Origin: Thermofilaceae archaeon
GTDB lineage: Archaea > Thermoproteota > Thermoprotei > Thermofilales > Thermofilaceae
NCBI GenBank assembly: GCA_038727095.1
Contig: JAVYWK010000010.1
Location: 1-64,000, forward strand
Direction of reading: 5' to 3'
Length of the DNA stretch: 64,000 nt
Part shown: one piece after another, positions 6,440 through 64,000 of the stretch
How positions within the stretch are numbered: position 1 is the stretch's first letter
Layout: every line of letters starts with the position of its first letter
Program-made: the position numbers and the translations under genes
Notes under the pieces: model-generated
Told to the model about the DNA's origin: nothing
Database searches by the model: none
Seen by the model: only the letters and a program-made list of their open reading frames with translations

Positions 6440-6556
6440 ATAATATTATTTTAGGTATCGGAAAGAGAATGTTAAGATTATTGAGCTCTATTCTTGAATC
6501 AAGAAGTGTATTGAAAATGTGTGGTTATACTCTATCATTAATTATTTTTTATCTTA

Positions 6557-6584
6557 ATATTATCGATTTCAAAATCGATAATAT
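6557..6584. repeat. Perfect 13-bp inverted repeat in an AT-rich gap between convergent genes
   Basis: ATATTATCGATTT-CA-AAATCGATAATAT. Confidence 0.8.
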
Positions 6585-6679
6585 GAATTATCTTGGATTT
6601 AGTAGAATAAAGAAAATTATAGATCATGCTTACCTTACCTTAAACATAATCACGGATAAAGCTATCGAGTGGTTGTATC

Positions 6680-8587
6680 TCACCACGGTTTAATCCATGT
6701 GGCCTTCGATATCAGCATTAGTGCAATACCTATGCCGAGCACTATACCTTGACCTGTCGTTAAACCTGCTACGATAATTGATTTCCTCCTATCCCAGTCC
6801 TTGATGAACCTTCTAAGCACGAAGTTGCTTAAACACGATCCTATGAAAACCGGGATCGTATACGGGGGTATCGTCATACTTCCGGTCACAATACCCATTG
6901 ATGAGAATGGGATGCTAAAACTTCTAGCTAGAAACTCGCCAACAAGTAAAACGCTCAGCATGCCGCCGAATGAGTAGTAAAATAGCCAAGGCTTTACGCT
7001 TATCCCCCCTGTAATCCACACAGCGCCGCCCACCAACGCCGCCGGCCAAGCAGCTAGGGCGTAAGGGTAAGCGTTGCTTGGTATCGGCGCGAGACGCCAG
7101 AAGAACTCAGTCCAGACGAAGCTGAAAACGTTGTAGAGAATTATGCTGAACACGAGGGCTTTTAGGACATCTGATGGTCTCGTATCCGTTAAGTAGCCAA
7201 CTTTAATCATGTAGACCCAATAGGGGGCTCCTCCCTCCAATGAAGGTAAACCTCCTATTACCGGGCTAAAGATCCACGCCTTTACACCTTTATAGCCACT
7301 CAGGTAAACGATCGTGTTCCACTCGTACGGTATCGAGATGGAGTATCCGGTTTCTCCTATCGAACGCGTAGTGATCATAGCGTTTAACAGTGAGAGCACC
7401 AACGAAGCGAAGAAAGCCATCAGTAACGGGAACTCGGGCACAAGAATGCCGAAAAGTATCACAGAGCCTATTGAACCGACAAGGTACATCACGATCATCC
7501 TCCAGAAGGCTGGGTACCCGCTAGCGGTTCTTAACCTTATAAATGATCGGAAAGCATTGACGATTGTTCTGGCGCCAAAAATTAGGAACACAACAACAGA
7601 GGCGTACGCGAACGCTATCTGAGGGACTATCCATACCCTCAGTAGAGAGCGGGCGTAGACTTGCTCTAAACTCATGCCCTGGAAATACTCATTTACCCAC
7701 TCCGGGAATGAATCTCTAAACAGTGTGAGTGTAAGAGGGGTGCCCACTAGCCAGATTGCAAGGGACGAGATCAACATACATGAAGCAACATGAAGCGGGA
7801 TAAAGAGACCGGACAGGTAGGGCAGAAGGTCCGTCGCTAGACCTAGAAGAGCTCCGGGCAACCATTTAGCAACAAATGTTGTGAGATCAATCCATGGTAA
7901 CGGAATTAGCCGGATACCGGTGAGCGATGGAATCAGGTAGAGTACTGCTCCCCATACGACCCCCGGATAGATGGAGTAGACGAACATTCTCATTCTATCA
8001 GGGTCTCTTTCACTCAATGTGGAGACTAGTGCTGCATCTATTGTAGCAAGAGGGAAAGGTAGCTTCTCGGTTTCAATGTAGAGGTGAGCCATCAGCACCG
8101 TTAAGCTGAGCTCGATTAGGTAGAAGAAGAGTCCTGATTGTATATTAACTATCAAAAGGGGTAACAACCAGTCGGGATGGATGAACGTTCGCAGCACATA
8201 CGCTTCGGACATCGGCGGAGGAGCCCACCAAGAAGGTATGAGCTGAGGTAAAGGTACTCCATCCAACTTGAATGACCAAGCCAAAGGCGAAGTCATAAAA
8301 TAGCTCTTCTGAACTTGGTATAGGTAGCATGTTGTAGCTCCTGCAGCGAGCGCTGACATCTGGTAAATTATAAAAAGCTCCTGTTTAGCGAGAGGGTTCC
8401 CCGTCATTCTAGTTACTTCGGAAAAAATCAAAGCCATGAGAATCGCCACAGCGGGTAGAGAACCTATCCCCGCCACTAATTGGACATAGATCGAGATAGG
8501 CGTGAAAACAAGCACGGTTAGTAAGATGGCGAAAGCCGCTCTCCATGTAAAACCCGGTTTGAGTTCTTGAGAATCTCTCTCTTCCAC
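6680..8587 (-). CDS. OPT-like polytopic membrane protein (module copy 1, subunit A)
   Basis: Many TM segments; GFTWRA N-terminus, EKLPFP motif, PIPSNAYP; paralog of 56354-58291. Confidence 0.8.
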   Translation of the reverse strand: MEERDSQELKPGFTWRAAFAILLTVLVFTPISIYVQLVAGIGSLPAVAILMALIFSEVTRMTGNPLAKQELFIIYQMSALAAGATTCYLYQVQKSYFMTSPLAWSFKLDGVPLPQLIPSWWAPPPMSEAYVLRTFIHPDWLLPLLIVNIQSGLFFYLIELSLTVLMAHLYIETEKLPFPLATIDAALVSTLSERDPDRMRMFVYSIYPGVVWGAVLYLIPSLTGIRLIPLPWIDLTTFVAKWLPGALLGLATDLLPYLSGLFIPLHVASCMLISSLAIWLVGTPLTLTLFRDSFPEWVNEYFQGMSLEQVYARSLLRVWIVPQIAFAYASVVVFLIFGARTIVNAFRSFIRLRTASGYPAFWRMIVMYLVGSIGSVILFGILVPEFPLLMAFFASLVLSLLNAMITTRSIGETGYSISIPYEWNTIVYLSGYKGVKAWIFSPVIGGLPSLEGGAPYWVYMIKVGYLTDTRPSDVLKALVFSIILYNVFSFVWTEFFWRLAPIPSNAYPYALAAWPAALVGGAVWITGGISVKPWLFYYSFGGMLSVLLVGEFLARSFSIPFSSMGIVTGSMTIPPYTIPVFIGSCLSNFVLRRFIKDWDRRKSIIVAGLTTGQGIVLGIGIALMLISKATWIKPW

Positions 8588-8684
8588 ACTCTCCTTACAG
8601 TGAAAAGCCCTATTTAAGTTTTAATTATTCCATATATGTGTTTACGAGGGAAAAATTAAAAAATGTCTCGTACTCGACAAAAAT

Positions 8685-11600
8685 GTGTTGAAGCGGGTAC
8701 TCCTCGGTATGCTACTGGCGCTCATTGCTATTAGCTCACAGTTGTACGTTTCCACTGGATTCTCGTTGAGGAGTTCGAGTAGCTCTTCGATTCATGAGGT
8801 TAGTTTTAGTGAATTAAACTTAGAAATGGGATTATTATCAGAGGTTCTTAGAACATTATCAAGTTATAGAACCAGAATGACAGGTTACCCAGAATTCTAT
8901 TTAGCTTCCAAATATATAAGGAATTATTTTGAAAGCATAGGTTTAAATGTAATTATACAAAAATATAAGGTTTTAGTCCCCCTTGATTTAGGATCTTACT
9001 TAGAGGTGCTTGAGCCAGCCGAGTTCTCAGGCTGTAAGATTCCGGTATATGCGCTGCAACCGAACTTAATCCAGACGTCTTTTACTTCGGATCTCAAGGG
9101 AGAGCTGGTATACGTTCGTGGAGACAGCCTAGATAGTTTGGATGGAAAGGATTTAGAAGATAAAATCGTTGTCATGAATTTCGATAGCCGCGATTTATGG
9201 ATAGATGCGTTAAACTTTGGGGCTAAGGGGATTGTATTTTTAGAAAGGGAAAGTAACAAGTACGATGCAATGTTAAAAGTTCTATCTACGCCGCTTTTCG
9301 CGCCTCGAGTGTTCGTTTCAAGGGAACATACTGACGAAGTCTTACGTCTAGCTAAAGTTGGCGCTAAAGTAAGGCTGGTTGTTAATATGAGATGGAGAGA
9401 GGTGGAGGCTGAAAACGTGATAGGTATTCTTGAGGGTGAGAGGAAGGACGAAATCATCATCGTGTCCGCCCACTTCGATAGTTACAGTGTTGTTCCAGCG
9501 TTTTCACCAGGTGCTGATGAGGCATCATCCATTGCAGCCCTGCTTACCATTGCAAAGCACTACGCTTCTCTTAAGAAGGTTCCGAGAACTATCTGGTTTG
9601 TTGCATTCAGCGGCCACTGGCAAGGACTAGCTGGAGCTCGAGAGTTTGTTGAAGATCTCATTTTTAACAACAAAGATATTCGAGAGGGAAAGCTGAGAGT
9701 TAAGGCATTCATAAACCTGGATTTATCCACGGACAATTATCAGCTATCCGCCGTCTTGGTGGGTCATTTTTACAAGTATGGTGGAGCTGGAGGAGGAGCC
9801 GAAATAGTGTCTAGGTACACGTGGGTTAAGAATATACTGGCAAACCTGCGCGACAACGTCTTAAGCAAGTACAACTTCTCGTCCGGCGATTTGAACGATG
9901 TCCTCACGAACTATTATTGGAGCAGTACAATGTTAGAACCATACATTTTAGATTCTGAACCGCCAGCACTTGCAGGTTTGACAGCATTCACGCTTATGAC
10001 CAGCTTTTCAAGGAGGCTGTACTGGTTTACTCCTTTTGACACGCTAGAGAAAGTAAACATTAATAATTTGGTTAAGCAAACGATACTTGCATTCCTCGTT
10101 ATCGACTCGATACTCAATCTAGATGAGATACCCGATTACGCGCCCGCAAGGGTGCGCCTTTACGGTCGAGGTGGCCCGGCGTCGTTTATTACGTTAAGGG
10201 GGAGAGTAGTGTTCTTCAACCTAACGAAGGGGTGGTATGATCCATTACCTAATGCACTTGTTAGGGTAGGGATACTTCCTCAATCCAATTTCTTCATATT
10301 CTCGAATATAATAGTTGGGACCAACGAGAGGGGGGAGTTTGAGGTTCATGGTTTGCCTATAGCTACTGTTCTCGGAGCTACTTACGCGGTATTCGTTGAA
10401 GGCTGGTATCTCAATGAGCGCAGTGAAATTTCTTACGCCCCCGATATGGGCGTTTACGGAGCTAGGGCTTTCCCAGCTTACCTCTCTCTGCTTAAACATC
10501 CGGAAAACGCGACGGCAGTCGTATTCGAGTGTGGCGTTGTGGAGCTGTTCGACATGCTGAATCCTAATAACTTCAGGAGGGCAGTAATCATGGATCCGAC
10601 CGCTAGCGGCGATGTTAACTACTTAACTGAGCAAGCAAAATTGATGGTATACAATTTCATAGAGTTTGCCGAGCCTCTCTTTTATGGAACATACTATAAC
10701 CCTCGGGAGCGAGTAGCGATGGCTTTCGTGCAACCAGGGATGAGATTCGCAATCGTACTTCAACGCGGCGCAATAGCGTTGCAGAACGTTGGTGTCCTAG
10801 TGAACGCCTCTGAGAGAGTACCAGAAGGTTCTGGATATGTCATCAACCGTGCAGGAGAAAGGTTGAGGATCAAGTTTACGGCCTTAGCGTTCGCTACGAA
10901 TATGAATAGTATTGCGAAAGCGAGATACGCTGTACTTTCCAGGCATTTTGTTTCCTCGCCTACAGCTCCTGAGGCGTTAAATAAGGCAGACAGCTTCATA
11001 CGCAAGGCTCAAGAGAGCCTTAAGGAGTTGAGGTACTCTGACGCTTACTCATACGCTTTGATAGCATGGTCTTGGTCGATAGTGGCGTACGGCATGCACA
11101 CTATGACGCTCATATATGATCTTCCCTTAACTGCAACGCTGTTCTATGCTCTACTGATACCCTCAGCATTCCTCCTAGAAAGATTGTTGCTGCGAAAGGA
11201 GGGGTTAGCTAGGATAATTTCGATAGCCGCCTTAGCGGCAGCGCTGTTTGCGGCCTTCAGTTTTGTGCATCCGTCAATTTTCTTAATGACCAACTCAGCA
11301 CTGGGATTAGCGGGGATTCTCGTACTCTCCTTCCTAATATTCGTGGTATACTTGCTAACCAGTGAAACTTCGAGGATTTTAGAGGAAGAGGAGGTGAAAC
11401 GGCTAGGAGAACATAGGTTTAGGAGGTTGCATTTATCAACCATTGAGTTATTCTCCTCTCTCTCGCTAGAGAACCTGAAAAGGTACAGGATGAGATCAAT
11501 ACTGACCCTTGCAACAGTCTTCGTCATTGTTATCGCCCTACTTTCGTTCACCTCTTCATCCTATGCTCTCGTAGTAAACAGAATAAACCTGCCATACCAG

Positions 11601-13127
11601 ACGGAAACAGCGTCTGCGTTATTGAAGAAAGGACGTGCCGAACCCCCCTACAATCTCCTTGACATATACACGGCCCGCGTAGTTGATACGCTCTTCAAGG
11701 GCGTTGGCTCAGCCTACCCCAGGGTCTTTGTATGGCCATCATTTGTAAGCCCTCTAGGACGAGTTATGTACGTTAAATCCGTAGATGGGCGAAGCACGAT
11801 TGTTCGCGGTCTACTAGGTTTTTCAGCTGGCGAGAGCAAAGCTTTACTTAGTGGCGCTCTAATAGCGGGTAGGCTTTTCGAAACTTATGATTACTACTCA
11901 TGTATCCTTACTTCAAACCAGGCTAAAATCTTAGGGGTAAACGTTGGGGATGTCATAAGCGCCGGAGGGATTAACTTAACCGTTATCGGAATTCTCTCCA
12001 CGGAGGTTCTAGCTTCAATAAAAGATCCCGATGGTTTAACACCCACAACACCTGATCCACGCACAATACCTCAATACGCTGTGGCTAGGACTGAGGCCCG
12101 CATAGCGTACCCGCTACCGTGGGATGAAGTCCTCCTTATCCCAGTTCGCCTGGCGGAAGACTTAGGAGGTGCTGTAGGTAGTATCGCGGTGTACCCACGT
12201 GAAAATGCTACAAGGCAAGCCTTCGAGGAGAAGGCTAGTGAGGCATCCAAAATAGTGGATGCGCCGATTTACATCTCTTGGGGCGGGACTCTGGCGTTCT
12301 CGAGGATGCTATCATGGAGCCTCATGGGGTGGGAGTTTTCGCTAATCCTTCTCTTCCTCGGTAGCCTAAATATCCTTGTGTCCTCAATAGCCATGGTTAG
12401 AGAGAGGACAAGAGATGTTTACATCTACAGTACGCTGGGGTTACCGCCAAAAGGGGTTCTTGTGTCGTTCATCATGGAGAACTTCATTTATGTCTCCATA
12501 ACCATACCAATAGGTTATATAGCAGGGATCTGCTTTAACTATCTACTACATGAAATTGGAATCCTACCCGATATTTACGTGTTTAACTTCTCCTCTTTGG
12601 CCGCTGCTCTCAGCCTAGTTACAATAATTGTAGTAATTATGCTATCTTCGATATACCCCGCTCTCAAGGCTTCGGGTCTAGTCACTCCGTCTCTCGAGCG
12701 TCGCTGGCGAGTAACGACAAGTCCCCGTGGGGATGAGTGGGATATCCCCTTGCCAGTGACAACGCCAACGCTAGAGGAGGCTAGAGCTATTCTGCTGTAT
12801 CTCAACGAGTACCTTCGCGGAATAGGGAGGACAACCCCGTACTTCACGGTAGTATCTGAACCCGTGTTAGAGGAGAAGAGCCTAAGCTTCAACGTCCTGT
12901 TAGCTCCAAGAGAGCTTAATATCACACAAGAGGTTAAAATCCTCCTACAGCAGACTGCGGGAAGGTACACCTTCCTGCTCCATGTCAGGAGGTTAAGCGG
13001 AAGGTATGAGAGCTGGAGAACATCCAACTACTTTTTTGCTGATGCGTTAAGAAAGCAGATGCTGTTGTGGCGAGGTCTCAGCGAAGAAATTCGCCTTAAA
13101 TATACGAGTATGAGTAAAACTTATTAA
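8685..13127 (+). CDS. PA domain + M28-peptidase-like + FtsX/MacB-like permease fusion (module copy 1)
   Basis: Signal peptide, RMTGYPE, GELVYV/GAKGIVF (PA), NVIGIL, SAHFDS, SGHWQGLAG, then TM bundle, ENLKRYRMRSILT and ERTRDVYIYSTLG (FtsX-type). Confidence 0.88.
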   Translation: MLKRVLLGMLLALIAISSQLYVSTGFSLRSSSSSSIHEVSFSELNLEMGLLSEVLRTLSSYRTRMTGYPEFYLASKYIRNYFESIGLNVIIQKYKVLVPLDLGSYLEVLEPAEFSGCKIPVYALQPNLIQTSFTSDLKGELVYVRGDSLDSLDGKDLEDKIVVMNFDSRDLWIDALNFGAKGIVFLERESNKYDAMLKVLSTPLFAPRVFVSREHTDEVLRLAKVGAKVRLVVNMRWREVEAENVIGILEGERKDEIIIVSAHFDSYSVVPAFSPGADEASSIAALLTIAKHYASLKKVPRTIWFVAFSGHWQGLAGAREFVEDLIFNNKDIREGKLRVKAFINLDLSTDNYQLSAVLVGHFYKYGGAGGGAEIVSRYTWVKNILANLRDNVLSKYNFSSGDLNDVLTNYYWSSTMLEPYILDSEPPALAGLTAFTLMTSFSRRLYWFTPFDTLEKVNINNLVKQTILAFLVIDSILNLDEIPDYAPARVRLYGRGGPASFITLRGRVVFFNLTKGWYDPLPNALVRVGILPQSNFFIFSNIIVGTNERGEFEVHGLPIATVLGATYAVFVEGWYLNERSEISYAPDMGVYGARAFPAYLSLLKHPENATAVVFECGVVELFDMLNPNNFRRAVIMDPTASGDVNYLTEQAKLMVYNFIEFAEPLFYGTYYNPRERVAMAFVQPGMRFAIVLQRGAIALQNVGVLVNASERVPEGSGYVINRAGERLRIKFTALAFATNMNSIAKARYAVLSRHFVSSPTAPEALNKADSFIRKAQESLKELRYSDAYSYALIAWSWSIVAYGMHTMTLIYDLPLTATLFYALLIPSAFLLERLLLRKEGLARIISIAALAAALFAAFSFVHPSIFLMTNSALGLAGILVLSFLIFVVYLLTSETSRILEEEEVKRLGEHRFRRLHLSTIELFSSLSLENLKRYRMRSILTLATVFVIVIALLSFTSSSYALVVNRINLPYQTETASALLKKGRAEPPYNLLDIYTARVVDTLFKGVGSAYPRVFVWPSFVSPLGRVMYVKSVDGRSTIVRGLLGFSAGESKALLSGALIAGRLFETYDYYSCILTSNQAKILGVNVGDVISAGGINLTVIGILSTEVLASIKDPDGLTPTTPDPRTIPQYAVARTEARIAYPLPWDEVLLIPVRLAEDLGGAVGSIAVYPRENATRQAFEEKASEASKIVDAPIYISWGGTLAFSRMLSWSLMGWEFSLILLFLGSLNILVSSIAMVRERTRDVYIYSTLGLPPKGVLVSFIMENFIYVSITIPIGYIAGICFNYLLHEIGILPDIYVFNFSSLAAALSLVTIIVVIMLSSIYPALKASGLVTPSLERRWRVTTSPRGDEWDIPLPVTTPTLEEARAILLYLNEYLRGIGRTTPYFTVVSEPVLEEKSLSFNVLLAPRELNITQEVKILLQQTAGRYTFLLHVRRLSGRYESWRTSNYFFADALRKQMLLWRGLSEEIRLKYTSMSKTY

Positions 13128-13149
13128 GAAGAGATAATCAAGACACTCG

Positions 13150-15195
13150 ATGAGCGAAGTAGAGCTTCGCCCAGGCCTCACACCTAGAATCCTCATCCTG
13201 ATCGTTTTACTGACAGCGCTCTGCTACATACCAACGCACTACCTCTGGAATCTCTCCGACAGACCTTACACGTTCAGTGGCTTTTTCGTACCCTACTTCT
13301 GGATAATAATGGTATTGATGCTTTTAGGGAGGCTCAGCCCCTCGTTGAGGCTAACCCCTCAAGAGGCAATAGTTCTTATGGTCCCCTTCTGGATCCTTAC
13401 GGGAATCAGCTTCATTGAAAAGGGCACGCCCAACGAGGGTCTCTGCAAAGGCTGGAGTAGTGCAACAGGTATCGTACCTCTCGTTTACGCGTTAAACGTC
13501 GATCCATACCGTGAAGCTTGGAGGGCAGCTTTTCCATCATTCTGGATCCCAAGCGACCCTGAACTGCTAAGAGCTGCGTGGGAGGGCTTAGGAATACGGG
13601 ATTGGGGGCCTTGGATCGCTCCGATGATCTACTGGATGCTTTTCTGGATCTCCTGGGTCATCATCGGACTGTGCTGGGGCTTTATCTTTAGGAGGCCGAT
13701 GGTTGAAGTTGAAAGGTTACCGTTCGTAGCCGGTTTACCGCTGGCCTATTTCTCCTTAACCGCTTTTGAGCAGACCCCTGAAGGGAAGTCTCGCCTATTC
13801 GATATGAGAGATGCATGGACTAGAAACCTTTGGATAGGTTTCATTATTGGTTTGCTACTGTCTTTGGCTCCCGTGATCTACGAGGTTTGGCCGGTGATCC
13901 CCTTCGGCGCATGGTGGGGCGAGTACCACATTGATTACATCACAAGTTTAACGGAGCCTGTGCTCCCGGGAGCCGATTTCTCATTCGTCTTCCATATAAC
14001 GCAAATTGTTCTTTGGCTGATGATATCGTACGATGTGCTCTTAACAGCGATCATCTCGTGGCTGGCAATAAACGTGATTTACAACATGGTCGTGATTAGA
14101 GCGGGCCTCGTACCCTTTGAACCGGGTATTAGCAGCTTCTCTTGCTGGACCATTGGGTACAGACCTCCCTTCCACTACTCATGGTTCGGTACAACGGGCG
14201 TCCTGGTTGGAGTTGGAATCTGGACCTTTGTAACAGCATGGCCCCACATAAAGAACGTGTTCCAGTCGCTAAGAGGGCCCGACTACGTCGAGCAGGGGCA
14301 GTCAATGCGACAAGTGCTATTACTCATCCTGACATTCACGGTGATTTGGGGTATCCTCTGGGCTGTAGCGGGTGTACCGGTACACCTCTTCATCGTCTTC
14401 TACATCCTGTGGTTGCTATGGATTGTAGCGAGTACAAGAATGGTTGGTGAAGTCTGGTACCACATGCCCGTAGGTACGCCTCTCATCTGGCCATTCGTCT
14501 ATTACTTGGGTGCAGGTACGGGTTTCTGGCAAGCCATTGTTCCCAATACCAACCCCTTAGCTATCAGAGCGATGTTCCTTGTCACTACGGCAACATGGTG
14601 GACACCGAGGTTCCAGTCGAATTCTATGTTCATGTCGCAAATCGGCTATAGGGTTGCACAAGTGAACAAAACGAGGGCTGGAGACATGTTCAGAGCCCTA
14701 TTAATAACGAGCATTGTGGGAATCCTTGTGGCTGTACCGTTTGGCACATGGTTTATGCATCATTATGGTGGGCTTTCCTCTTTCACCGGTGACAATTGGG
14801 AAGGCGGAGGCGTAGTGTGGGCTACTGGTGCTGAGAACATAGTTTCTTCGGAGTACTGGCCTGTACACTACGACATCGTAACCCACATTGTTTACACGAT
14901 CATAGGAACCATCGTAACGTTAGGCATTTACCTCGCACGTGCCAGGTGGCCTTGGTTCTTCATCAACCCCGCTGCTCTCTCTATAAGCCTCTGGCTAAAC
15001 GAATACATGTGGATGAACGCTGTCGTAGCATTGATTCTTAAGTACGTTATAACTAAGGTGGGTGGCGTCGAAGCGCTAGAGAAAAAAGTCTTCCCAGCAG
15101 TTGTAGGGTTCTGTACGGGTTATGGAAGCCTATTCCTCTTCGTCGCACTTAGAGAGTTATTCCTAAAAGTTATTCCAAGAGTACTGGGATTCTAA
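13150..15195 (+). CDS. DUF6785/DUF6784-like polytopic membrane protein (module copy 1, subunit B)
   Basis: 681-aa hydrophobic protein; WGPWIAP, VEVERLPF, RWPWFFINP; paralog of 62852->64000. Confidence 0.75.
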   Translation: MSEVELRPGLTPRILILIVLLTALCYIPTHYLWNLSDRPYTFSGFFVPYFWIIMVLMLLGRLSPSLRLTPQEAIVLMVPFWILTGISFIEKGTPNEGLCKGWSSATGIVPLVYALNVDPYREAWRAAFPSFWIPSDPELLRAAWEGLGIRDWGPWIAPMIYWMLFWISWVIIGLCWGFIFRRPMVEVERLPFVAGLPLAYFSLTAFEQTPEGKSRLFDMRDAWTRNLWIGFIIGLLLSLAPVIYEVWPVIPFGAWWGEYHIDYITSLTEPVLPGADFSFVFHITQIVLWLMISYDVLLTAIISWLAINVIYNMVVIRAGLVPFEPGISSFSCWTIGYRPPFHYSWFGTTGVLVGVGIWTFVTAWPHIKNVFQSLRGPDYVEQGQSMRQVLLLILTFTVIWGILWAVAGVPVHLFIVFYILWLLWIVASTRMVGEVWYHMPVGTPLIWPFVYYLGAGTGFWQAIVPNTNPLAIRAMFLVTTATWWTPRFQSNSMFMSQIGYRVAQVNKTRAGDMFRALLITSIVGILVAVPFGTWFMHHYGGLSSFTGDNWEGGGVVWATGAENIVSSEYWPVHYDIVTHIVYTIIGTIVTLGIYLARARWPWFFINPAALSISLWLNEYMWMNAVVALILKYVITKVGGVEALEKKVFPAVVGFCTGYGSLFLFVALRELFLKVIPRVLGF

Positions 15196-15552
15196 AAATA
15201 AAAGTTAATTTTATTTTTTATTTATAAAGTAATTCAAACTGAAGGAGATATTGAAAATCGGTTTTCAATTGAGCATCCGAAAGCGATCACTATTGGGTTC
15301 GCAAGTCTATGAGCACTGATCTAGGATCAAAGTCGTATAACTTATGGCTAAAGTTAGTGGGGAGCAGCTTTATGTTTCTATTACCTCTAGTCGCGTGATT
15401 CTCACAAGAAGCATTTTCCTTGTGTTCAAACATTCCTCTCGCCTGAGTTCATCAGCATGTTGCTTAAGCCTCTACAGTGATGCTTGAGATCACCCTATCT
15501 TACTTCCGCAGGCTTCCTCACAGTCCTCTTACTACCGTTCGTTCTCTAACCC

Positions 15553-15824
15553 TTCTCACAATGTATTCTCTCTCCAGTCCATAGTATACCTGATGGCGTC
15601 GAAGGACGATAAGTGGGGCATCACGCTGTTCACGCTCGGACTCTTCACTGTTAGCGCTTTAGTGGGGACCGTGGCAGCCATCCCTCACAGTGCTCGTGTT
15701 AACACTCCTCCTGAGGAGGGTGAGGATTGCGGCATCGCGCGCCCGCTCGCTGAATAAGCTCAACAAAGTACTGGGAGCTGCAATGGTTGCAGCCGCGGTT
15801 CTCTACGCAGCTGGCTTGATCTAG
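15553..15824 (+). pseudogene. Decayed, internally deleted ccdA remnant
   Basis: FSQCILSP/IVYLMASKDDKWGITLFTLGLFTVSALVGTVA matches intact FSPCILPLLPIVYLIASKGGRRGAAWFTLGLFSLSSLIGTVA; LTVLVLTLLLRRVRIAASRARSLNKLNKVLGAAMVAAAVLYAAGLI* matches the intact C-terminus; frameshift and deletion. Confidence 0.85.
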
Positions 15825-34768: not shown

Positions 34769-34772
34769 TAGA

Positions 34773-56353: not shown

Positions 56354-58291
56354 GTGCGCGCCGTGGGCGTTGAGCGCCTTGAGAGCGGTTTAACGTGGAG
56401 GGCGATGGCAATCGTCGCGATGGCCGCTCTCGTCTTCGTTCCTGCAAGCACTTACCTCTACCTGGTTACGGGCGCCACGCTGGGTGTTGTCGGCACGTAC
56501 GCGATGATGATGATCTTCGCCTACATCATGAGAATGCTCGGCTTTGAGCTGAGACCCCAGGAGGTCTTCGTCACCTACGTGGGCGTGGCAGCGGTCGCGG
56601 GCCTCGCATCCACCTCCTACTTCCTCATCATCTACAGGATGTACTTCGTTGAGAGCCCTATCGCCCGCTCCTACTACATAGGCGGGGTCCCCCTGTACGA
56701 GGCGGTCCCCGAGTGGCTGGCCCCACCCCTCGGCTCAAGGGCGTACCTCGTTCGCACGTTCTTCCAGCCGGATCTCGTCAAGCCGATCGCCGCCTGGACG
56801 GTAGCGATGGTCCTTACAGTGCTCGCCGAGCTCTCCCTAGTCATACTCGCTTCTCACGCTTTTGTGGAGGTTCAGAAGCTCCCCTTCCCCTTCGCCCAGG
56901 TCGACGCAACGATCGTCACCGCAATCTCCAGCGGCGAGCGCTTCCGCGAGCTGGTCAAGTACCTGATGCCCGGCTTCTACACGGGGCTTGTCTACGGGCT
57001 GATCCTCTACCTTGGCCCCTTCCTCGGCTTCCCCATTATCCCCCTACCTTTCATCGACTTAACCCGTCTAACTTCCGCAACCCTGCCCGGGGCTGTGATC
57101 GGTGTAGCGACGAGCCTTACGGCCTGGGTAGGGGGGATGGTTGTGCCGTTGGGGATCTCCTCGGTAGCCTTGGCAACATCGGTGGCTGTCTGGGTCTTAG
57201 GCAACTACCTCATCCTGACGAACCCCTCGCTGAGGGTGGTTTTCCCCGAGTGGGGCATGGAGTACTACCAGGGGATGGATCTCGTCAGGGTGCTGCAGAG
57301 GTCTCAAGTCAGAGTTTGGCTCCCAATCCAGATCGGCGCCGCGCTCGGCTTCGCGGCCCTCGTTCTAGCCAAGTACAGGAGAGCCTTCGGTACAACGGCT
57401 AGGGCCATCTACCTGTCGATCAAGGGGGCCGGCAGGGAGAGCGTTTTCCCCCCGCTCCGCCTCGCGCTAGCCCTCTACCTAGCCGCGACGCTCACCTCCG
57501 TCGCCGTCTTCCACTACCTGATCCCCGGCTTCCCTCTCGCAATCCCGCTCGTGATGTCCCTGGTGGTCGGCACTCTGATGGGCTTTGTTTCCGCCTCTGT
57601 CGTCGGTGAGAGCGGAGCCTCCTTCTCCTCACCACCGTTCCTCTGGCACACGATCGTCTACCTGACGCCCGCGCAGCACCTCTCCCCGAGGGAGGCGTAC
57701 TCCGCCTTCGTCTACCCGCCCGTCATCGCAGGCTCGATGACCGGCGGTGGCGCTCAAGTGATGAAGGCCGCGCTGCTCACTGGCACAAAGCCCTCTGACG
57801 TCATCAAAGTGTGGATTCTCGCCTTCGCGTTAGGGGTTCTCATCAACCTTCTGTCCCTGGACATGCTGTGGAGGATCGCGCCTATACCGAGCAGCGCTTA
57901 CCCGAGCACTGTCATTTCGATGCCGGCGACGGCGATGATCGACGCTCTCCTCGTCACAAGGGGGTTGAGGATCGAGCCCGGGATTCTGATGGGCTCGGCG
58001 GCGGGAGCCGTGATGATGGCGGCCCTCGTCGAGGCCTTGGCAAAGCTGCTCAAGGTTGGGGTCTCCTCCTCCGGCCTACTGCTCGGCCTCTTCACTCCCC
58101 CCGTAACGGCGATACCGATGTTCACCGGCTCAGCGCTCGGCTGGCTGGTGTTGCGCCGCAGGTTTAAGGAGCGCTGGGAGCAGGCCCGCTACGCGATTGT
58201 CGCCGGGACTTTGATAGGGGAGGGGTTGGCGGCTACAATAGCTATAATAGGCTTAATGCTGTCGAAAGCCTCGTGGCTCTGGCCGTGGTGA
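56354..58291 (+). CDS. OPT-like polytopic membrane protein (module copy 2, subunit A)
   Basis: SGLTWRA, QKLPFP, PIPSSAYP, KASWLWPW end like KATWIKPW of copy 1. Confidence 0.8.
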   Translation: MRAVGVERLESGLTWRAMAIVAMAALVFVPASTYLYLVTGATLGVVGTYAMMMIFAYIMRMLGFELRPQEVFVTYVGVAAVAGLASTSYFLIIYRMYFVESPIARSYYIGGVPLYEAVPEWLAPPLGSRAYLVRTFFQPDLVKPIAAWTVAMVLTVLAELSLVILASHAFVEVQKLPFPFAQVDATIVTAISSGERFRELVKYLMPGFYTGLVYGLILYLGPFLGFPIIPLPFIDLTRLTSATLPGAVIGVATSLTAWVGGMVVPLGISSVALATSVAVWVLGNYLILTNPSLRVVFPEWGMEYYQGMDLVRVLQRSQVRVWLPIQIGAALGFAALVLAKYRRAFGTTARAIYLSIKGAGRESVFPPLRLALALYLAATLTSVAVFHYLIPGFPLAIPLVMSLVVGTLMGFVSASVVGESGASFSSPPFLWHTIVYLTPAQHLSPREAYSAFVYPPVIAGSMTGGGAQVMKAALLTGTKPSDVIKVWILAFALGVLINLLSLDMLWRIAPIPSSAYPSTVISMPATAMIDALLVTRGLRIEPGILMGSAAGAVMMAALVEALAKLLKVGVSSSGLLLGLFTPPVTAIPMFTGSALGWLVLRRRFKERWEQARYAIVAGTLIGEGLAATIAIIGLMLSKASWLWPW

Positions 58292-58296
58292 GGGGG

Positions 58297-61200
58297 ATGC
58301 GGCGCAACACCCCTATTATTGCGCTCGCAGTCCTGCTGCTGTCGCAGGCCCTGCTCTTCGCACAGCCCCCGCAGGCATCGGAGCTCGAGAGGCTTGAAGC
58401 CCTTCTCAACGCGCTGGATACCAGCGCTGTACAGCGGCACGCTACCACGATCTCGGGCTTCGGGTCGAGGCTGACGGGCTACGAGGGCTACAACAGGACA
58501 TTGGAGTACGTTGTAGCCGCGCTGAGGGGCTACGGGCTTGAAACCGTGCTCCAACCCTTCCGGGTTCTGGTTCCATGGGACGCGGGGAGCACCATCCGAG
58601 TGCCCGAGCTGGGCATCGAGATCAGGGCTCACTGCGCCTGGCCGAACGGACACGTGGGAACGTGGAGCGTCAGAGGGCTTCGCGGCAAGCTGGTCTACGT
58701 GGGTAGGGGGGAGCTGGAGGACTTCGAGGGGAGGGAGATCGAGGGAAGCATCGTCGTCATGGACTTCGCGAGCTTGGGTAACTGGAGGAACGCGGTCAAG
58801 CTGGGGGCGAAGGCCGTGATCTTCGTCGATACCGGGGGAGGAGATAGGTACGAGGCTTACACGAAGTTCGAGTGGTACGCCTTCTACCCCTTCGTGAGGC
58901 TCTACGTGTCGGGCGGGGAAGCGCGCAGGTTGATCGAGCTGGCCAGGAGGGGGTTTGAGGCGGAAATCGACTCGAAGCTCGAGTTGAGGGCTGTCACGGC
59001 GTACAACGTCCTGGTCAGAGTTCCAGGCCGGCGGGAGGGCGAAGCGATCATGGTGGTAGCCAGTGTCGACGCGTGGTCTGTCGTCCCGGCCATGGCGAGC
59101 AGCGTGCAGGATGCTGTGAACGTGGGCCTGCTGCTGGAGCTCGCGAGGATCGCTGGGCAGGCTCAGCTGGAGAGGTCGTTGTGGATCGCGTTTCTCTCCG
59201 GCCACTGGCAGGGCTTGGCTGGCGCCCGGGCTCTAGCTGAGAACTTCACGAGGGACCCCGATCTGACCGGCGGGAGGATCGTGGTCTGGTACGTGGTGGG
59301 AATCGACCTATCCGATGACTTCCCCGGCGTCTCCCTAACCTATATGGGGCACTTCTACCGTGCGGGCAGGGCACTCTTCACGGCGAAGTACAGCTGGATC
59401 CAGGAGGCCGTTGGAACCCAGCTCTCCAGCTTCCTCAAAGGCTACCTGCAGCGTAGGAACCTCATCCCTGCTAACCTGATGGGCGCGATCGACACGCTCG
59501 GCCTCGTCAGGGAAGTCGACCTTGTTGAAGGCCCCGATTGGAGCTGGAGCGGCACGATGGCGACCCCCTACATCCTCGACACTGAGCCTTTCGTTGTGGC
59601 CGGGATGGCCGGCTTCACGATAAGGACCCAGTTCAGCTACAGGAACTGGGAGGGTGTTCCCGGCGCCACTAGCATGCGCTGGGAGTACGTCCTACCCCAG
59701 CTCTACCAGGCTTCCGCTGTAGTGCTGTACGCCACGATTGCCGAGGCTGTTAGGCTCACCCCTGCCAGCGCGAGACCCGCGCGCTTCACGGGGCTGGGCG
59801 GAGGTGGCGCAGCGGGAGTCATGTTCTGGGGCTTGATAACCTTCCGGGTTAGCGTAGCCTCCTTCAACATCACAGCCGGCTGGTACACGCCCGTGCAGCA
59901 CGCTATCGTCAGAGTTTGGAGCTACCCGCACGACTACCCCTTCGCCTCCGCGCTAGCGCTCACGGGAGCTGACGGGGTCGCAGAGGTCGTTGGGCTCGCT
60001 CCTCAGGGCGTCTGCTACTGGAGGATCGACGCCGTGCGGATCGACCCTGACGGCGTCTACACCGTCGATTTCGGCGTCTACGGAGTCCAGCCGGCAGCAC
60101 TCGTTGTAGGCGCGCTGCAGGACCCGATGCCGGTCTTCGTCCCAGTCTTCAAGGGTGGGGTGCTTGTTCTAGCCGACCTTGTTTCACCGCGCCTCTTCAG
60201 GGCGGGGGCTGCCGACGATCCGAGGATGGGAGGGATCAGGACTTGGTACAGCCTGGGTAGGGAGGTTAGAGTCTACGAGGTGGGGACGAGGGCGGAGCCC
60301 ATGTTCTGGGGCGTTTACGGTTTACCGCAGGACGAGGTCGTCCTGGTCTCAGCGCCGATCGGTTCGAGGATGGTTGTTGCCGCTAAGCCGGAGAATCCAC
60401 CGCTTGAGCCGAGGCCGGTCATACTGCTGGCGAACTCCAGCGAAGCTGAGCCTGAAGGGGTGGGAGTGCCGGTGGAGCCGGGCTTCACGGTAATCTCGAG
60501 GTCGGCTCTCGCGTACGCGATCGACCTTTACCGAACGGCGAGACACAGGTACGAGCAGCTCAGGGGTAGGATGGTGAGGAGGCTGAGCGCTGAGGTCTAC
60601 GAGGCGAGGGCTGGTGAGTACATCCAGCGAGCCCTGGCGGCCTACCGGGAGCACAGGTACGCGGAAGCCTACAGGTACTCGCTCCTCGCCCTATCGTACG
60701 CCGCCCGCTTCTACTCAGACGAGGTCATGCCCCTCTACGACGAGATTGGGAGGACAGCCGTGCTCATGCTCTTCCTCTTCCTACCCTCAGCCTTCTTCCT
60801 GGAGCGCCTACTGGTGCACAGGGAGGGCATGCGGAGGATCCTGTCCACGCTGGTGATCGGCGCTGTAGCCGTGCTCCTCTTCTCGCTCGCACACCCAGCG
60901 CTCAGCGTTCTCGCGAACTCCGCGATGGCGGTAATGGCCGTGGCGATCCTACTGGTCACCTTGCTGCTCTTCTACGTCTTCTTCAGCGAAACTTCGAGCG
61001 CGCTGCTCTCCTACGCCGAATCGAGGATCGGAGCCCACGAGTTCAGGAGGGAAGAGGCGGCTGCAGCTCTCTTGGCCATCTCAACGAGCTTGGAGAACAT
61101 GAGGAAGAGGCCGCTCAGGACAACCCTCACGCTGCTGACAATAATCGCCGTTGCGACTGCCGTGGTTGCGCTCACCTCAACCTCCCCCACCGTCTACGTG

Positions 61201-62760
61201 TCTACATCGGCTAGAGCGGCTCAAGCCCCCTACGAGAGCGTCCTAGTGAGAAGGGGGTTCGGCGTCTTGCAAGACGTACTCAGTCCTTACACAGTTGAAG
61301 CAGTGAAGGGGTTAGCGCCCACTGGCAGCGTAGCCCCCAGGCTTTGGTACTACCCCGTCTCGGTCAATAAGGTTGGTCCCTACGGCTTAATCGTTAGCGA
61401 GAGAGGTAGCCTCGCAGTCCAAGCGGTGCTAGGCTTCACGCCCATCGAAGCTGAAGCCCTCCTTAGTGGAGCTTTGGAGAGCGGCTCGACCATCGGGAGG
61501 GGCCAGGTTTACGCCTGCCTCCTGACCTCATCACAAGCCAGGCTGCTCAACGTGAGCGTGGGCGATGCGGTGGAGTTCATGGGGTTCAAACTGGTCGTCG
61601 TGGGCATCCTAAGTGATGAAGCGCTGCTAGGCTTGCCGCGTGACCCCGACGGGTACTACTACGTGCCGATCGATCCCACCTACTCGAACGTCCTCTACGG
61701 CTTCACCTTCGGGGGAGGTCAGATATCCCCCACGCCTCTCTCCTGGGACCGCGTGCTGATAGTCAGCGGTAGTTTCGCCGCTAAGCTGGGAGCGTTCATC
61801 AACAGCATCAGCGTGGCAATGCCGGGAGCCAGCGGCGGTGACCTGCTGAACCTGGCAAGCAATTTGTCCCACGTGCTGGACGCTGGAGTCTACGCCTACG
61901 CGAACGGGACCTCCTACTCCACGAGCAGGCTTTTCGGCTACGCCTTCCTCGGCTGGGAGTCTGTCGGCCCGCTGCTGATGCTGGGCGGCATCAACGTGGT
62001 GGCGACGCTGCTCGCCGCGGTCTACGAGAGGACGAGGGAGCTCTACGTTTACTCCTCGCTCGGCCTCTCACCGCGCGGCGCAGCCCTAATGTACCTCGTT
62101 GAGTTCCTCGTCTACGGCTTCATCGGAGCGTTCGTTGGCTACATGGCCGGGTGGATGGCGTCGCGCTGGTTCATGGCCGCAGGCCTCCTACCGGAGACAT
62201 TCGTGTTCAACTATGCATCAGCTTCGGTGGCGCTCGCGATGGCAGCGATCGTCGCTGTCTGCGCAACTGCCTCAGCGTACCCGGCGATCAAGGCTGCGCA
62301 GCTGATCACTCCCTCCCTCGAGAGAGTGTGGAGGCCGCCGACGAAGCCGAGGGGTGACGTCTGGGAGCTCACCTTCCCGCTCAGGCTGATCTCGAGGGAG
62401 GAGGCTCTCGGTCTGCTCAACTACCTTAAGGAGTACTACCTCGGGGCGGGCTACTACAAGCCCAGCCACAGGGTGGTTAGCGTGGGTGAGATCGACGCTT
62501 CTAACCTCGAGCTTAAGCTGAGGGTCCTACTCACCCCCACTGAGAGCGGGACAGAGCAGGAGGTCTCGATCAAGATTATTGAGCAGCCGGGCCGGAGGTT
62601 CAGCGTAGCAGTGGCGGCCCGCTTCCTCGGGGGGTCGAGAGCCGTGTGGACGAGCTCCAACATCTACTACCTCGACGACTTGAGGAAGCAACTGCTCCTC
62701 TGGGTTTCGCTCCCCGGAAAAGAGAAGGGCAGGTACATGCGAGAAGCTAAATCTCAATGA
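58297..62760 (+). CDS. PA domain + M28-peptidase-like + FtsX/MacB-like permease fusion (module copy 2)
   Basis: Collinear with 8685-13127: RLTGYEG, GAKAVIF, SGHWQGLAGAR, ERTRELYVYSSLG, TPSLER, LRKQLLLW. Confidence 0.88.
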   Translation: MRRNTPIIALAVLLLSQALLFAQPPQASELERLEALLNALDTSAVQRHATTISGFGSRLTGYEGYNRTLEYVVAALRGYGLETVLQPFRVLVPWDAGSTIRVPELGIEIRAHCAWPNGHVGTWSVRGLRGKLVYVGRGELEDFEGREIEGSIVVMDFASLGNWRNAVKLGAKAVIFVDTGGGDRYEAYTKFEWYAFYPFVRLYVSGGEARRLIELARRGFEAEIDSKLELRAVTAYNVLVRVPGRREGEAIMVVASVDAWSVVPAMASSVQDAVNVGLLLELARIAGQAQLERSLWIAFLSGHWQGLAGARALAENFTRDPDLTGGRIVVWYVVGIDLSDDFPGVSLTYMGHFYRAGRALFTAKYSWIQEAVGTQLSSFLKGYLQRRNLIPANLMGAIDTLGLVREVDLVEGPDWSWSGTMATPYILDTEPFVVAGMAGFTIRTQFSYRNWEGVPGATSMRWEYVLPQLYQASAVVLYATIAEAVRLTPASARPARFTGLGGGGAAGVMFWGLITFRVSVASFNITAGWYTPVQHAIVRVWSYPHDYPFASALALTGADGVAEVVGLAPQGVCYWRIDAVRIDPDGVYTVDFGVYGVQPAALVVGALQDPMPVFVPVFKGGVLVLADLVSPRLFRAGAADDPRMGGIRTWYSLGREVRVYEVGTRAEPMFWGVYGLPQDEVVLVSAPIGSRMVVAAKPENPPLEPRPVILLANSSEAEPEGVGVPVEPGFTVISRSALAYAIDLYRTARHRYEQLRGRMVRRLSAEVYEARAGEYIQRALAAYREHRYAEAYRYSLLALSYAARFYSDEVMPLYDEIGRTAVLMLFLFLPSAFFLERLLVHREGMRRILSTLVIGAVAVLLFSLAHPALSVLANSAMAVMAVAILLVTLLLFYVFFSETSSALLSYAESRIGAHEFRREEAAAALLAISTSLENMRKRPLRTTLTLLTIIAVATAVVALTSTSPTVYVSTSARAAQAPYESVLVRRGFGVLQDVLSPYTVEAVKGLAPTGSVAPRLWYYPVSVNKVGPYGLIVSERGSLAVQAVLGFTPIEAEALLSGALESGSTIGRGQVYACLLTSSQARLLNVSVGDAVEFMGFKLVVVGILSDEALLGLPRDPDGYYYVPIDPTYSNVLYGFTFGGGQISPTPLSWDRVLIVSGSFAAKLGAFINSISVAMPGASGGDLLNLASNLSHVLDAGVYAYANGTSYSTSRLFGYAFLGWESVGPLLMLGGINVVATLLAAVYERTRELYVYSSLGLSPRGAALMYLVEFLVYGFIGAFVGYMAGWMASRWFMAAGLLPETFVFNYASASVALAMAAIVAVCATASAYPAIKAAQLITPSLERVWRPPTKPRGDVWELTFPLRLISREEALGLLNYLKEYYLGAGYYKPSHRVVSVGEIDASNLELKLRVLLTPTESGTEQEVSIKIIEQPGRRFSVAVAARFLGGSRAVWTSSNIYYLDDLRKQLLLWVSLPGKEKGRYMREAKSQ

Positions 62761-62851
62761 CGCTTCCTAGATCTAATTCCTGTTATTGCTTATCAGATAT
62801 TTTTATAAGTATAGAAAAATTTATAAGTAGGTAATGTATATAATAGTATCG

Positions 62852-64000
62852 ATGGGGCAGGAAAAACCTGCTGAGGCCAAGGTTGAGCGCATCCGTGTTT
62901 TAACGCCCCCGCTCCTGATAACTGTGATCATCCTCACGATAGGCAGCGAGATCTTCACCATCTGGTTTAGATCGCTCACTACGAAGATGTGGTCTTACAC
63001 TGGCTGGTTCATCGGCGCCTTCTACGTAGTCTTGATCATGCAGCTCCTAGGGATGCTCAGCCCCAAGCTGAGGCTTAACCCAGGGCAGCAGCTGCTACTC
63101 CTCCTCCCGTTCTGGTACGCGGCCGGTAAAGCCTTCATGATCACAGGCGCGGGCGGTGAAAACTGGCATGAGATGCTGTACCCGATCTGGTCCTTCCTCA
63201 TCAGAGGGTTAAGGGAGCCCGCGCTGAGGACTTATACTTGGGATCTCACGCCCTCACTAATAGCCCCCAAGGATCTAACCGAGCTGGATAAGATCTGGAG
63301 GGGCTTGATGCCCGGCGAGGTGATCAACTGGGGGCCGTGGATGGCGCCCATCGCGTTCTGGAGTCTCTGGCTGATCGTTACGACGCTCATCATTGTAACC
63401 CTCGTCTACACCGTGATCGGTCCCCAGACGGTTGAGGTTGAACGGCTCGTGTACCCGATGAGCGTCCCGGCCACCGTTCTGCTCACGAACGCTGGCACGT
63501 GGGTTGAGGTCGGAGGTAAAGCCAGGTCGAAGCTCTTCGACCTAGCCGATATGAGGATGAGGATCTTCTGGATCTCCTTCGTCGTTGGAGCCCTCTTCCT
63601 ATCGATGATCCCGCTGCTAATGGAGGTTCTACCGGTGATCCCTGTGCTCGGAGCGTTCCTCTGGGGCGAGATACCCCTCTCGCTGCAGACGTGGTTCAAC
63701 ACAGCTGCAGTACTCCCCGGCGGCCACTTCTACGCGGTCTTCATAATCCACCAGGCGATCCTCATGACGCTGCTCCCCTACGACGTGCTGATAACGCCCG
63801 TGATAATCTGGCTGATCGTCTACCTCATCTACGTCCCACTGGGCGTTCGGATGGGCTTCCTCCCGTACACTCCGGGCGTCGAAGGGTGGGCGAACTGGTA
63901 CTACGGATACATGTCACCGTTCCCGTTCGCAGCTTTCGCGATCTACGGCATGTCACTCGGACTCGGATTGCTGACGCTCTGGGAGGCAAGAGGTACGGTT
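62852..64000 (+). CDS. DUF6785-like membrane protein (module copy 2, subunit B), runs off window end
   Basis: Absent from ORF track (no stop); MGQEKP...LGMLSPKLRL, WGPWMAP, VEVERLVYP and SKLFD match 13150-15195. Confidence 0.8.
   Translation, partial: MGQEKPAEAKVERIRVLTPPLLITVIILTIGSEIFTIWFRSLTTKMWSYTGWFIGAFYVVLIMQLLGMLSPKLRLNPGQQLLLLLPFWYAAGKAFMITGAGGENWHEMLYPIWSFLIRGLREPALRTYTWDLTPSLIAPKDLTELDKIWRGLMPGEVINWGPWMAPIAFWSLWLIVTTLIIVTLVYTVIGPQTVEVERLVYPMSVPATVLLTNAGTWVEVGGKARSKLFDLADMRMRIFWISFVVGALFLSMIPLLMEVLPVIPVLGAFLWGEIPLSLQTWFNTAAVLPGGHFYAVFIIHQAILMTLLPYDVLITPVIIWLIVYLIYVPLGVRMGFLPYTPGVEGWANWYYGYMSPFPFAAFAIYGMSLGLGLLTLWEARGTV

Follow-up and report, generated by a model that had tools for sequence, protein, structure and literature searches.

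The 64,000-nucleotide (nt) stretch of Thermofilaceae archaeon DNA analysed here, referred to below as the window, carries two copies of a conserved, uncharacterised three-gene membrane module. Each copy encodes an OPT-like polytopic membrane protein, a giant protein that joins a PA/M28 aminopeptidase-fold ectodomain to an FtsX permease, and a second polytopic membrane protein of the DUF6785 type. In module 1, the OPT-like protein (P0001, 635 amino acids (aa)) is encoded at 6680..8587 on the minus strand, divergently from the giant (P0002, 1480 aa; 8685..13127, plus strand), which is followed by a DUF6785/DUF6784 protein (P0003, 681 aa; 13150..15195, plus strand). Module 2 lies entirely on the plus strand and is co-directional throughout, with an OPT-like protein that matches Pfam OPT (P0004, 645 aa; 56354..58291), a giant for which Pfam names FtsX, Peptidase_M28, MacB_PCD and PA (P0005, 1495 aa; 58273..62760), and a DUF6785-like protein (62834..64000) that is cut by the window end; on the contig its gene continues to 64936, and the full protein measures 700 aa.

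All three protein pairs are collinear end to end. Pairwise BLASTP gave 37% identity for the OPT-like proteins (E 1e-119), 33% over 1471 columns for the giants (E 0) and 35% for the DUF6785-like proteins (E 6e-52), and the two copies differ in guanine-cytosine (GC) content, which is 0.43-0.49 in copy 1 and 0.58-0.635 in copy 2. A first-pass annotation, made from the letters of the window, had described this recurring, collinear and strongly diverged gene set with its differing GC and flipped OPT gene, and its coordinates proved exact. No ATP-binding cassette (ABC) ATPase gene lies beside either copy, and the ABC ATPase model PF00005 has no match on the whole contig.

Fold of the giant protein and of its OPT-like neighbours

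Pfam names Peptidase_M28, FtsX and MacB_PCD in both giants, with E values of 7.9e-17 (62 bits), 4.7e-12 and 1.2e-5, respectively, for copy 1, and a weak Nicastrin match (9.5e-4) was also seen. An AlphaFold2 model of residues 40-795 of the module 1 giant, built from a 50-sequence alignment (predicted local distance difference test (pLDDT) 93.5, predicted template modelling score 0.93), begins with a PA plus M28 aminopeptidase-fold ectodomain (aa 40-479; 8802..10121, plus strand). Ahead of this ectodomain the giant has a signal/TM segment. The secondary structure of the model adds a beta-rich domain (aa 499-729) and a helical hairpin (aa 732-794), both extracellular and together spanning 10179..11066 on the plus strand. 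Foldseek placed 2ek8 first (E 2.9e-26), followed by PaAP, BSAP, GCPII and the transferrin receptor (TfR; E ~1e-19 for TfR and GCPII), and VIA aligned the ectodomain model with 1rtq (Z 29.1, root-mean-square deviation (rmsd) 2.4, 261 aligned), 7zqs_B (Z 25.8) and 7w72_A (Z 19.7); in both fold searches the matches were taken up by the M28 part of the model.

By fold the ectodomain is therefore of the M28 type; by its catalytic and ligand residues it is not. The catalytic columns were placed by alignment to 2ek8 and read in an alignment of 74 giants, using the positions that we take to be the metal ligands. The column of the catalytic Glu holds His in 67 giants, Tyr in five, Arg in two and Glu in none, while the adjacent zinc-ligand Glu is replaced by Trp, Tyr or Phe in 66/74 and kept in 1/74. 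The first His ligand is retained in 45/74 giants and the bridging Asp in 24/74. The Ser-Gly-His-Trp replacement motif, which in the module 1 giant reads SGHWQG (pseudo-active site, 9609-9626, plus strand), is among the two most conserved stretches of the giant and was one of two patterns used for the locus search described below. Because this motif is conserved in place of the Glu-Glu pair, we read the ectodomain as a putative binding module with a repurposed pocket, predicted to be non-catalytic, rather than as a peptidase. The first-pass annotation had proposed a large extracellular PA/M28 domain carried on an FtsX-like domain, and both folds are borne out by the models.

The second part of the giant was modelled from 51 sequences (aa 795-1480, pLDDT 89.6). 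It opens with three family-specific membrane helices (aa 796-907; 11070..11405, plus strand; helices 2-41, 47-67 and 77-113 of the model), where all three alignments have an unvarying His862-Pro863, the two whole-protein ones (7 and 16 sequences) an unvarying Pro826, and Glu832 is constant solely among the 7 closest sequences. A MacB/LolC-type FtsX module follows (aa 916-1332; 11430..12680, plus strand), which runs from an elbow helix through transmembrane helix (TM) 1, a periplasmic core domain, TM2 and the coupling-helix loop ERTRDVYIYSTLGLPP to TM3 and TM4; R1241, G1252 and P1255 of the TM2-TM3 coupling loop are invariant. PF02687 (FtsX) scores 46.5 bits in P0002 and 46.2 bits in P0005 against a cut-off of 25.5, as expected of type VII permeases. 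MacB_PCD scores slightly below its cut-off of 27 (26.2 and 23.9 bits) and, taken with the model alignment, locates the core domain between TM1 and TM2. The FtsX module was matched by Foldseek to 5gko (E 5.7e-12) and LolCDE (8.9e-11), and by VIA to 9o9x_C (Z 16.7) and the MacB periplasmic domain 3ftj (Z 14.5, rmsd 3.6, 184 aligned), with YknZ 5f9q as a match for the periplasmic core (Z 13.6, rmsd 2.8). A Foldseek comparison with MacB had been suggested in the first-pass annotation, and this half of the giant indeed matches MacB and LolCDE folds.

The giant ends in a 146-aa cytoplasmic domain (aa 1335-1480; 12687..13124, plus strand; elements 557-685 of the model), a small alpha+beta fold with many invariant columns that is the other most conserved part of the protein. 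It has no Pfam match, an ESM Atlas search gave no usable match, and its best VIA matches, to KA1 / SRPBCC-like folds at Z 8-9, fall within the range of chance resemblance. Its identity as a nucleotide-binding domain was considered and rejected on account of this small alpha+beta fold and the absence of nucleotide-binding features from Pfam and VIA. A complex prediction combining the seven membrane helices of the giant (two chains) with the OPT-like protein scored 0.02 (mark 0.32) without controls and speaks neither for nor against an interface.

By profile comparison, the two polytopic neighbours of the giant are homologous members of the OPT superfamily (16-TM class), the DUF6785/6784 protein being a distant homolog. 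P0004 matches Pfam OPT (PF03169) at 5.3e-12 (45.6 bits, cut-off 25.8), as do 20/54 OPT-like members at E <= 0.001 (best 1.2e-17), which assigns the family to OPT although P0001 itself has no Pfam match at E <= 0.1. P0003 matches both DUF6785 (6.5e-18, 65 bits against a cut-off of 25) and DUF6784 (8.2e-8, 32.8 bits against 26.4). When a profile of 68 OPT-like sequences was aligned with one of 53 DUF6785/6784 sequences, hhalign returned a probability of 100% (E 4.8e-38, 595 columns), in agreement with the OPT-fold carrier pair that had been postulated from the window. A sequence search of the PDB with P0004 found nothing below E 0.23.

Conservation of the triad across genomes

Scanning a single genome per species for patterns of the giant yielded 157 relatives, from which 79 loci were kept; these loci were then searched with hidden Markov models built from the paralogs of this genome. 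The archaeal loci belong to Thermofilaceae, other Thermoprotei, Bathyarchaeia, Brockarchaeota and Asgard archaea (Heimdall-, Hod- and Hermodarchaeota), and the bacterial ones from metagenome-assembled genomes (MAGs) labelled Latescibacterota, Gemmatimonadota, Omnitrophota, Verrucomicrobiota and Planctomycetota. An OPT-like gene lies within 5 kb of the giant at 68/79 loci, and within 500 nt at 60 of these; among the 32 loci whose flanks reach 4.5 kb or more on each side the figure is 31/32. A DUF6785 gene is found within 5 kb at 50/79 loci (24/32 of those with long flanks). ABC ATPase genes are absent within 500 nt (0/79 and 0/32), rare within 3 kb (2/79 and 1/32) and infrequent within 10 kb (13/79 and 7/32). 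Routine adjacency of an ATPase, or failure of the genes to co-occur in other genomes, either of which the first-pass annotation had regarded as fatal to its module, is thus not what the loci display. Clustering of 389 flanking open reading frames (ORFs) gave no fourth conserved neighbour, with no family present at more than 8/79 loci; the commonest, GFO/IDH/MocA oxidoreductases, is too generic to read.

The association extends to whole genomes. In a class sample of 120 genomes, 30 carry giants and 28 carry the OPT-like subfamily, which is distributed over 27/30 giant-bearing and 1/90 giant-less genomes. Natural fusions of a giant with DUF6785 and DUF6784 also exist: P0032 (2105 aa) is such a protein, and P0039 (2120 aa) spans both halves. 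These fusions belong to a distant subfamily, and no longer fused relatives were found with P0003 as the query. A fused giant-DUF6785 query retrieved 2238 representative clusters (50% identity) at E <= 1e-30.

These data bear on an explanation in which the three genes share no complex, the giant being an FtsX-anchored surface pseudo-enzyme or adhesin and the OPT proteins independent, co-regulated carriers. The same FtsX chassis carries GH2 (1792 aa), CarboxypepD_reg and other ectodomains in proteins without OPT-like neighbours, and the order of the triad genes is shuffled among modules, both of which would suit such a loose link. It is made improbable by start and stop codons that are tightly packed or overlapping at most loci, by the proximity of the OPT-like gene to the giant, by the near-restriction of the OPT-like subfamily to giant-bearing genomes and by the existence of the giant-DUF6785 fusion.

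The source assembly (1.86 Mb, 52 contigs, 92% complete) contains six giants, six OPT-like genes and eight DUF6785-like matches, two of which are cut by contig ends. They make up five full triads and one giant/OPT-like pair, with shuffled gene order and orientation, so that a count of paralogous modules, as the first-pass annotation had recommended, raises the two copies seen in the window to six. Four of the five module-bearing contigs lack any ABC ATPase gene, and the nearest one on the fifth is 14 kb away. Other carriers are similarly endowed: genomes of 1.4-2.4 Mb hold six to nine or more paralogous triads that have diverged strongly, and giants reach nine or more copies in genomes below 2.5 Mb. 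Additional DUF6785-like genes at C31:12117-14345, C5:81927-83339 and C40:30-980 have no adjacent giant; the two that are cut by contig ends may be parts of one and the same gene or may come from unassembled modules.

Module 1 itself forms a low-GC island (window 6001-16000, 0.43-0.49) between flanks of 0.57-0.64. Its giant has metagenome relatives at 88% identity (one) and 57-58% (several), and in-genome paralogs at just 30-35%. As far as composition and identity levels indicate, module 1 may be a recent acquisition by transfer. Hot-spring metagenomes from three studies contain the region. Contigs of one metatranscriptome library match parts of all three genes at 90-99%, whereas a second RNA run and one DNA run gave no matching contigs; this supports expression only weakly, the claim being limited to presence in an RNA library.

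A candidate engine and other features of the genome

The source genome has 49 ABC ORFs with 55 PF00005 matches, and an ATPase adjoins just two of its 13 FtsX matches. The other eleven FtsX proteins are the six giants, four further large proteins and one 336-aa protein (C24:26898-27905). At C11:8832-9563, beside ABCE1 and without a membrane partner, lies a LolD/MacB-type ATPase gene (LolD model 232 bits). Its product is 74% identical to the ATPase encoded at C2:90961-91686, directly after a 211-aa FtsX protein that consists of an elbow helix, four membrane helices and a coupling loop and has no periplasmic domain. Both ATPase paralogs retain Walker A, the signature motif, Walker B with the catalytic Glu and the H-loop. 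A further unlinked candidate, C48:8590-9288, was rejected: its product is SufC-like (193 bits), and the gene is at the end of a contig.

The distribution of these ATPases follows that of the giants. In the class sample, orthologs of the unlinked ATPase with at least 77% identity are present in 26/29 other giant-bearing genomes and in 1/90 giant-less genomes (this one 69% complete), the best identity in giant-less genomes being otherwise 56% at most. Among 401 sampled Thermoproteota genomes, of which 68 carry giants, the ATPase type (E <= 1e-88) is found in 64/68 giant-bearing and 20/333 giant-less genomes; within family f18 of this sample, the identical 2/16 genomes carry both giant and ATPase. 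Five of the 20 exceptions were examined, and all five have other FtsX proteins of 945-1124 aa that share the extra membrane segment. A group of 168 bacterial genomes, 154 of them giant-bearing, gave 144/154 against 1/14. This group surrounds a MAG titled Gemmatimonadaceae (G122) and includes records titled Latescibacterota and Planctomycetota, the phylum labels conflicting between sources; many of its giant-bearing genomes are closed, and cultured carriers may therefore exist.

The small FtsX protein accompanies the ATPase over long evolutionary distances. In five of five distant giant-bearing genomes tested, a small FtsX gene stands directly beside an ATPase gene whose product is 66-79% identical to the archaeal one, whereas the giants over the same span are 25-28% identical. 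A subunit obliged to fit many partners would be expected to show conservation as high as that of the ATPase.

In genomes with a single giant, these genes come together with the triad. Three bacterial genomes of this kind share a one-strand cluster of ~13 kb with the order DUF6785, TPR, giant, OPT-like, a 300-360-aa gene, a ~140-aa gene, small FtsX and ATPase. In a closed archaeal one-giant genome, a small FtsX-ATPase-ATPase set is convergent with an operon encoding a 612-aa protein, giant, DUF6785, OPT-like, GH57 and a 203-aa protein, and a Desulfurococcaceae locus repeats this archaeal arrangement. At four Asgard loci the genes for the small FtsX and two ATPases are located ~5 kb upstream, and at a Bathyarchaeia locus an ATPase of 83% identity is encoded at a distance of 2.1 kb; over L090, L066/L134 and the four Asgard loci, ATPases of this type lie 2-7 kb from the giant.

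Some of these clusters hold further genes. Between the OPT-like and small FtsX genes of one bacterial locus are a 145-aa PqqD-like (peptide-binding RRE-type) gene (L132:9064-9498, 8.5e-9) and a 360-aa gene without a Pfam match, and genes of like size (137-143 aa; L130:11120-11530 and L131:4517-4945, matched by size only) hold the PqqD-like position in the other two. The PqqD-like, 360-aa and TPR genes could be lineage-specific accessory parts. In the archaeal operon, the OPT-like gene is followed by one for an 842-aa protein with a GH57 domain (L133:4399-6924, minus strand); an ORF of equal length occupies the same place at L090:10585-13113 (plus strand), matched by length only, and Asgard loci have an 808-aa protein without a Pfam match in a comparable position.

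The first-pass annotation had inferred an importer driven by ions and independent of any ATPase. Its observation that no ABC ATPase adjoins the module extends to all 79 loci within 500 nt and to all six modules of the source genome (0/6). The conclusion drawn from it is not supported: although no ATPase gene is close by, the system as a whole probably uses one, since unlinked MacB-type ATPases and a small FtsX track the giants and cluster with them in single-giant genomes. In its most developed form, the ion-driven model would have the FtsX module and C-terminal domain couple the receptor to the OPT pair, with the small FtsX/ATPase operon unrelated. Besides the lack of ATPases near the modules, it can call on the proton coupling of OPT carriers, on the conserved cytoplasmic domain and three extra helices, which are absent from canonical MacB-type permeases and could couple differently, and on the 20 Thermoproteota genomes that have the ATPase type and no M28-type giant. 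The near-complete co-distribution of giant, ATPase and small FtsX in two separate samples, the same-strand clusters of single-giant genomes, the retained coupling-loop motif and the lack of nucleotide-binding features in the C-terminal domain all speak against it. We rank this model well below one with a shared engine; overall, it is unlikely.

We instead lean, with somewhat better than even confidence, towards a modular type VII (MacB/LolCDE-like) ABC system in which the triad is the variable part that faces the substrate and a shared engine is encoded elsewhere in the genome. Several observations weigh against this. ATPases of the relevant type are found within 10 kb at only 6/79 related loci, and no ATPase or small FtsX gene stands beside any of the six modules of the source genome. 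The 20/333 Thermoproteota genomes with the ATPase and without an M28-type giant leave room for the small FtsX and ATPases to be a self-contained transporter. The co-distribution counts are not independent, as giant-bearing genomes form clades and shared ancestry confounds them. Finally, giant-DUF6785 fusions are rare, 2/150 best representatives spanning both halves, and a number of gene neighbours (GH57, GH4, PfkB, fucose isomerase and GFO/IDH/MocA), together with a sister protein bearing a GH2 ectodomain, point to carbohydrates rather than to the peptide ligand that is our leading guess.

That sister protein (C12:8523-13898, 1792 aa) carries its GH2 ectodomain on the same chassis of extra helices and FtsX, and adjoins a 776-aa protein that is predicted to have 10 membrane helices and matches no Pfam family; similar proteins of ~1800 aa recur in related genomes. 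Three other large FtsX proteins (960-1089 aa; C18:5497-8376, C12:38479-41532 and C8:50358-53624) have no adjacent ATPase either, one of them having CarboxypepD_reg and one a weak CdvA-like coiled-coil match at its C-terminus. In this lineage, extracellular enzyme-like domains seem to be anchored quite generally by the FtsX chassis.

The immediate neighbours of the two modules in the window differ. Copy 1 is flanked by genes for a DsbD-like protein, GH4, an MscS-like protein and PfkB, and copy 2 by radical SAM, HAD and LysE genes. Between the modules, at 33980-39715 on the plus strand, five consecutive ORFs (262, 767, 420, 172 and 293 aa; GC 0.50-0.55) have no Pfam match and adjoin genes for a T2SSF-type membrane protein (39721-41532, minus strand) and a T2SSE/PilB-type ATPase (41617-43587, plus strand). 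Together these may form an uncharacterised pilus or surface-structure cluster.

Proposed mechanism and relation to known systems

In the shared-engine arrangement that we favour, the giant would supply an FtsX half-permease with its periplasmic core domain and conserved cytoplasmic C-terminal domain, and its PA/M28-fold domain, having lost the catalytic Glu-Glu pair, most likely binds a ligand rather than cleaving it. The OPT-like and DUF6785/6784 proteins would be fixed partners that form the membrane path. The engine would consist of the single-copy 211-aa FtsX protein and one or two MacB-type ATPases, catalytically intact by motif, and would serve all six giants and probably the four other large ATPase-less FtsX proteins of the genome. 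The small FtsX protein would pair with the FtsX module of the giant as LolC does with LolE, and the ATPases would dock on the conserved coupling loops. ATP-driven movement of the stalk and periplasmic domain might then load or release ligand captured by the ectodomain, which would then be taken up through the OPT-fold pair. We infer that these proteins form a physical complex and that the giant forms a heterodimer with the small FtsX, and both the direction of transport and the substrate are likewise inferred. Clues for peptides are the OPT ancestry, the aminopeptidase fold and the PqqD-like gene of the bacterial cluster.

Transport could also run the other way, as in most known MacB-type systems, with the machine exporting, extracting or processing a peptide or envelope component, the OPT pair serving as an exit or flipping path and the M28-like domain holding the product outside. 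The characterised type VII systems matched by fold (MacB, LolCDE, FtsEX, HrtBA, YbbAP and BceAB) are known to act on the outer face of the membrane, and the PqqD-like gene and its like-sized counterparts between the OPT-like and small FtsX genes would fit an outward role. Yet characterised OPT-family members are importers, and the 79 loci are not flanked by conserved precursor or biosynthesis genes. The many diverged paralogous triads in each small genome, moreover, suit diversified acquisition better; for this reason nutrient acquisition seems to us the better fit, and an outward machine distinctly unlikely.

A more specific and more tentative form of the uptake reading, which we would not expect to hold in full, is a hybrid primary/secondary machine in which one ATP-driven type VII engine, made of the minimal FtsX and two ATPases, plugs into many interchangeable cartridges, each comprising an FtsX half-permease with its pseudo-aminopeptidase receptor and an OPT pair. 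In such a machine, mechanotransmission outside the membrane would feed or gate a carrier fold that is so far known only from ion-coupled transport.

The module is built from known kinds of parts, and is widespread and unstudied. With type VII ABC systems such as MacB, LolCDE, FtsEX, HrtBA, YtrEF and YbbAP it shares the four-helix FtsX module, elbow helix, periplasmic core and coupling loop of the giant, as well as the co-occurrence of LolD/MacB-type ATPases with the giants. It differs from them in that the cognate ATPase is not encoded with the permease: in most genomes the ATPase is unlinked and seemingly common to many paralogous permeases. The giant has, in addition, three extra membrane helices, the C-terminal domain and an ectodomain of ~800 aa, and the system includes a separate FtsX protein without a periplasmic domain and two OPT-superfamily proteins as obligate neighbours. 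We know of no solved or described type VII system with an OPT-superfamily partner. OPT/YSL carriers of oligopeptides and metal chelates are known as proton-coupled; the triad proteins resemble them through the PF03169 matches of P0004 and its relatives and the alignment of DUF6785/6784 to the same family, and depart from them in being a very divergent branch that occurs in unlike pairs and is nearly restricted to giant-bearing genomes.

The ectodomain fold, including its PA insert, is that of the non-catalytic ectodomains of the transferrin receptor, nicastrin and GPAA1 of the GPI transamidase, and of the PA-bearing M28 aminopeptidases 2ek8, PaAP and BSAP. Nicastrin and TfR act as receptors, and the giants, like receptor-type M28 domains, have lost the catalytic pair; unlike TfR/nicastrin-type proteins, they carry the ectodomain fused to an ABC-type permease and not on a single-pass anchor. 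ADOP proteins of Acidobacteria (TIGR03434) are likewise large FtsX families with many paralogs per genome, and their genes are not known to have an adjacent ATPase gene. Membership of P0005 in this family was rejected (19 bits against a cut-off of 622), and in contrast to ADOP, which has duplicated FtsX modules, the giants have an M28 ectodomain, a C-terminal domain and OPT-like neighbours. TRAP and TTT systems, in which a carrier of non-ABC fold is served by a capture module outside the cell, are a working analogy only, with no relation in sequence or fold; here the capture module sits on an ABC-type chassis and an ATPase is seemingly involved. The first-pass annotation knew of no experimental description, and a literature search at the level of listings likewise gave no paper naming DUF6785 or DUF6784 and none tying FtsX to OPT proteins, the orphan FtsX/MacB listings being all canonical ATPase-linked systems.

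If the proposed architecture is true, the reach of MacB-type mechanotransmission would include archaea, which have no outer membrane, OPT-fold proteins would prove to be working parts of an ABC system, and one shared engine would explain orphan FtsX permeases that have no neighbouring ATPase. More generally, a missing adjacent ATPase gene does not show ATP independence when genomes are read. Should the hybrid machine prove real, it would be a new class of nutrient uptake in uncultured archaea, including Asgard archaea, and in several bacterial phyla. Much of the nutrient capture by these organisms, largely uncultured degraders that live in hot springs and sediments, may take this route.

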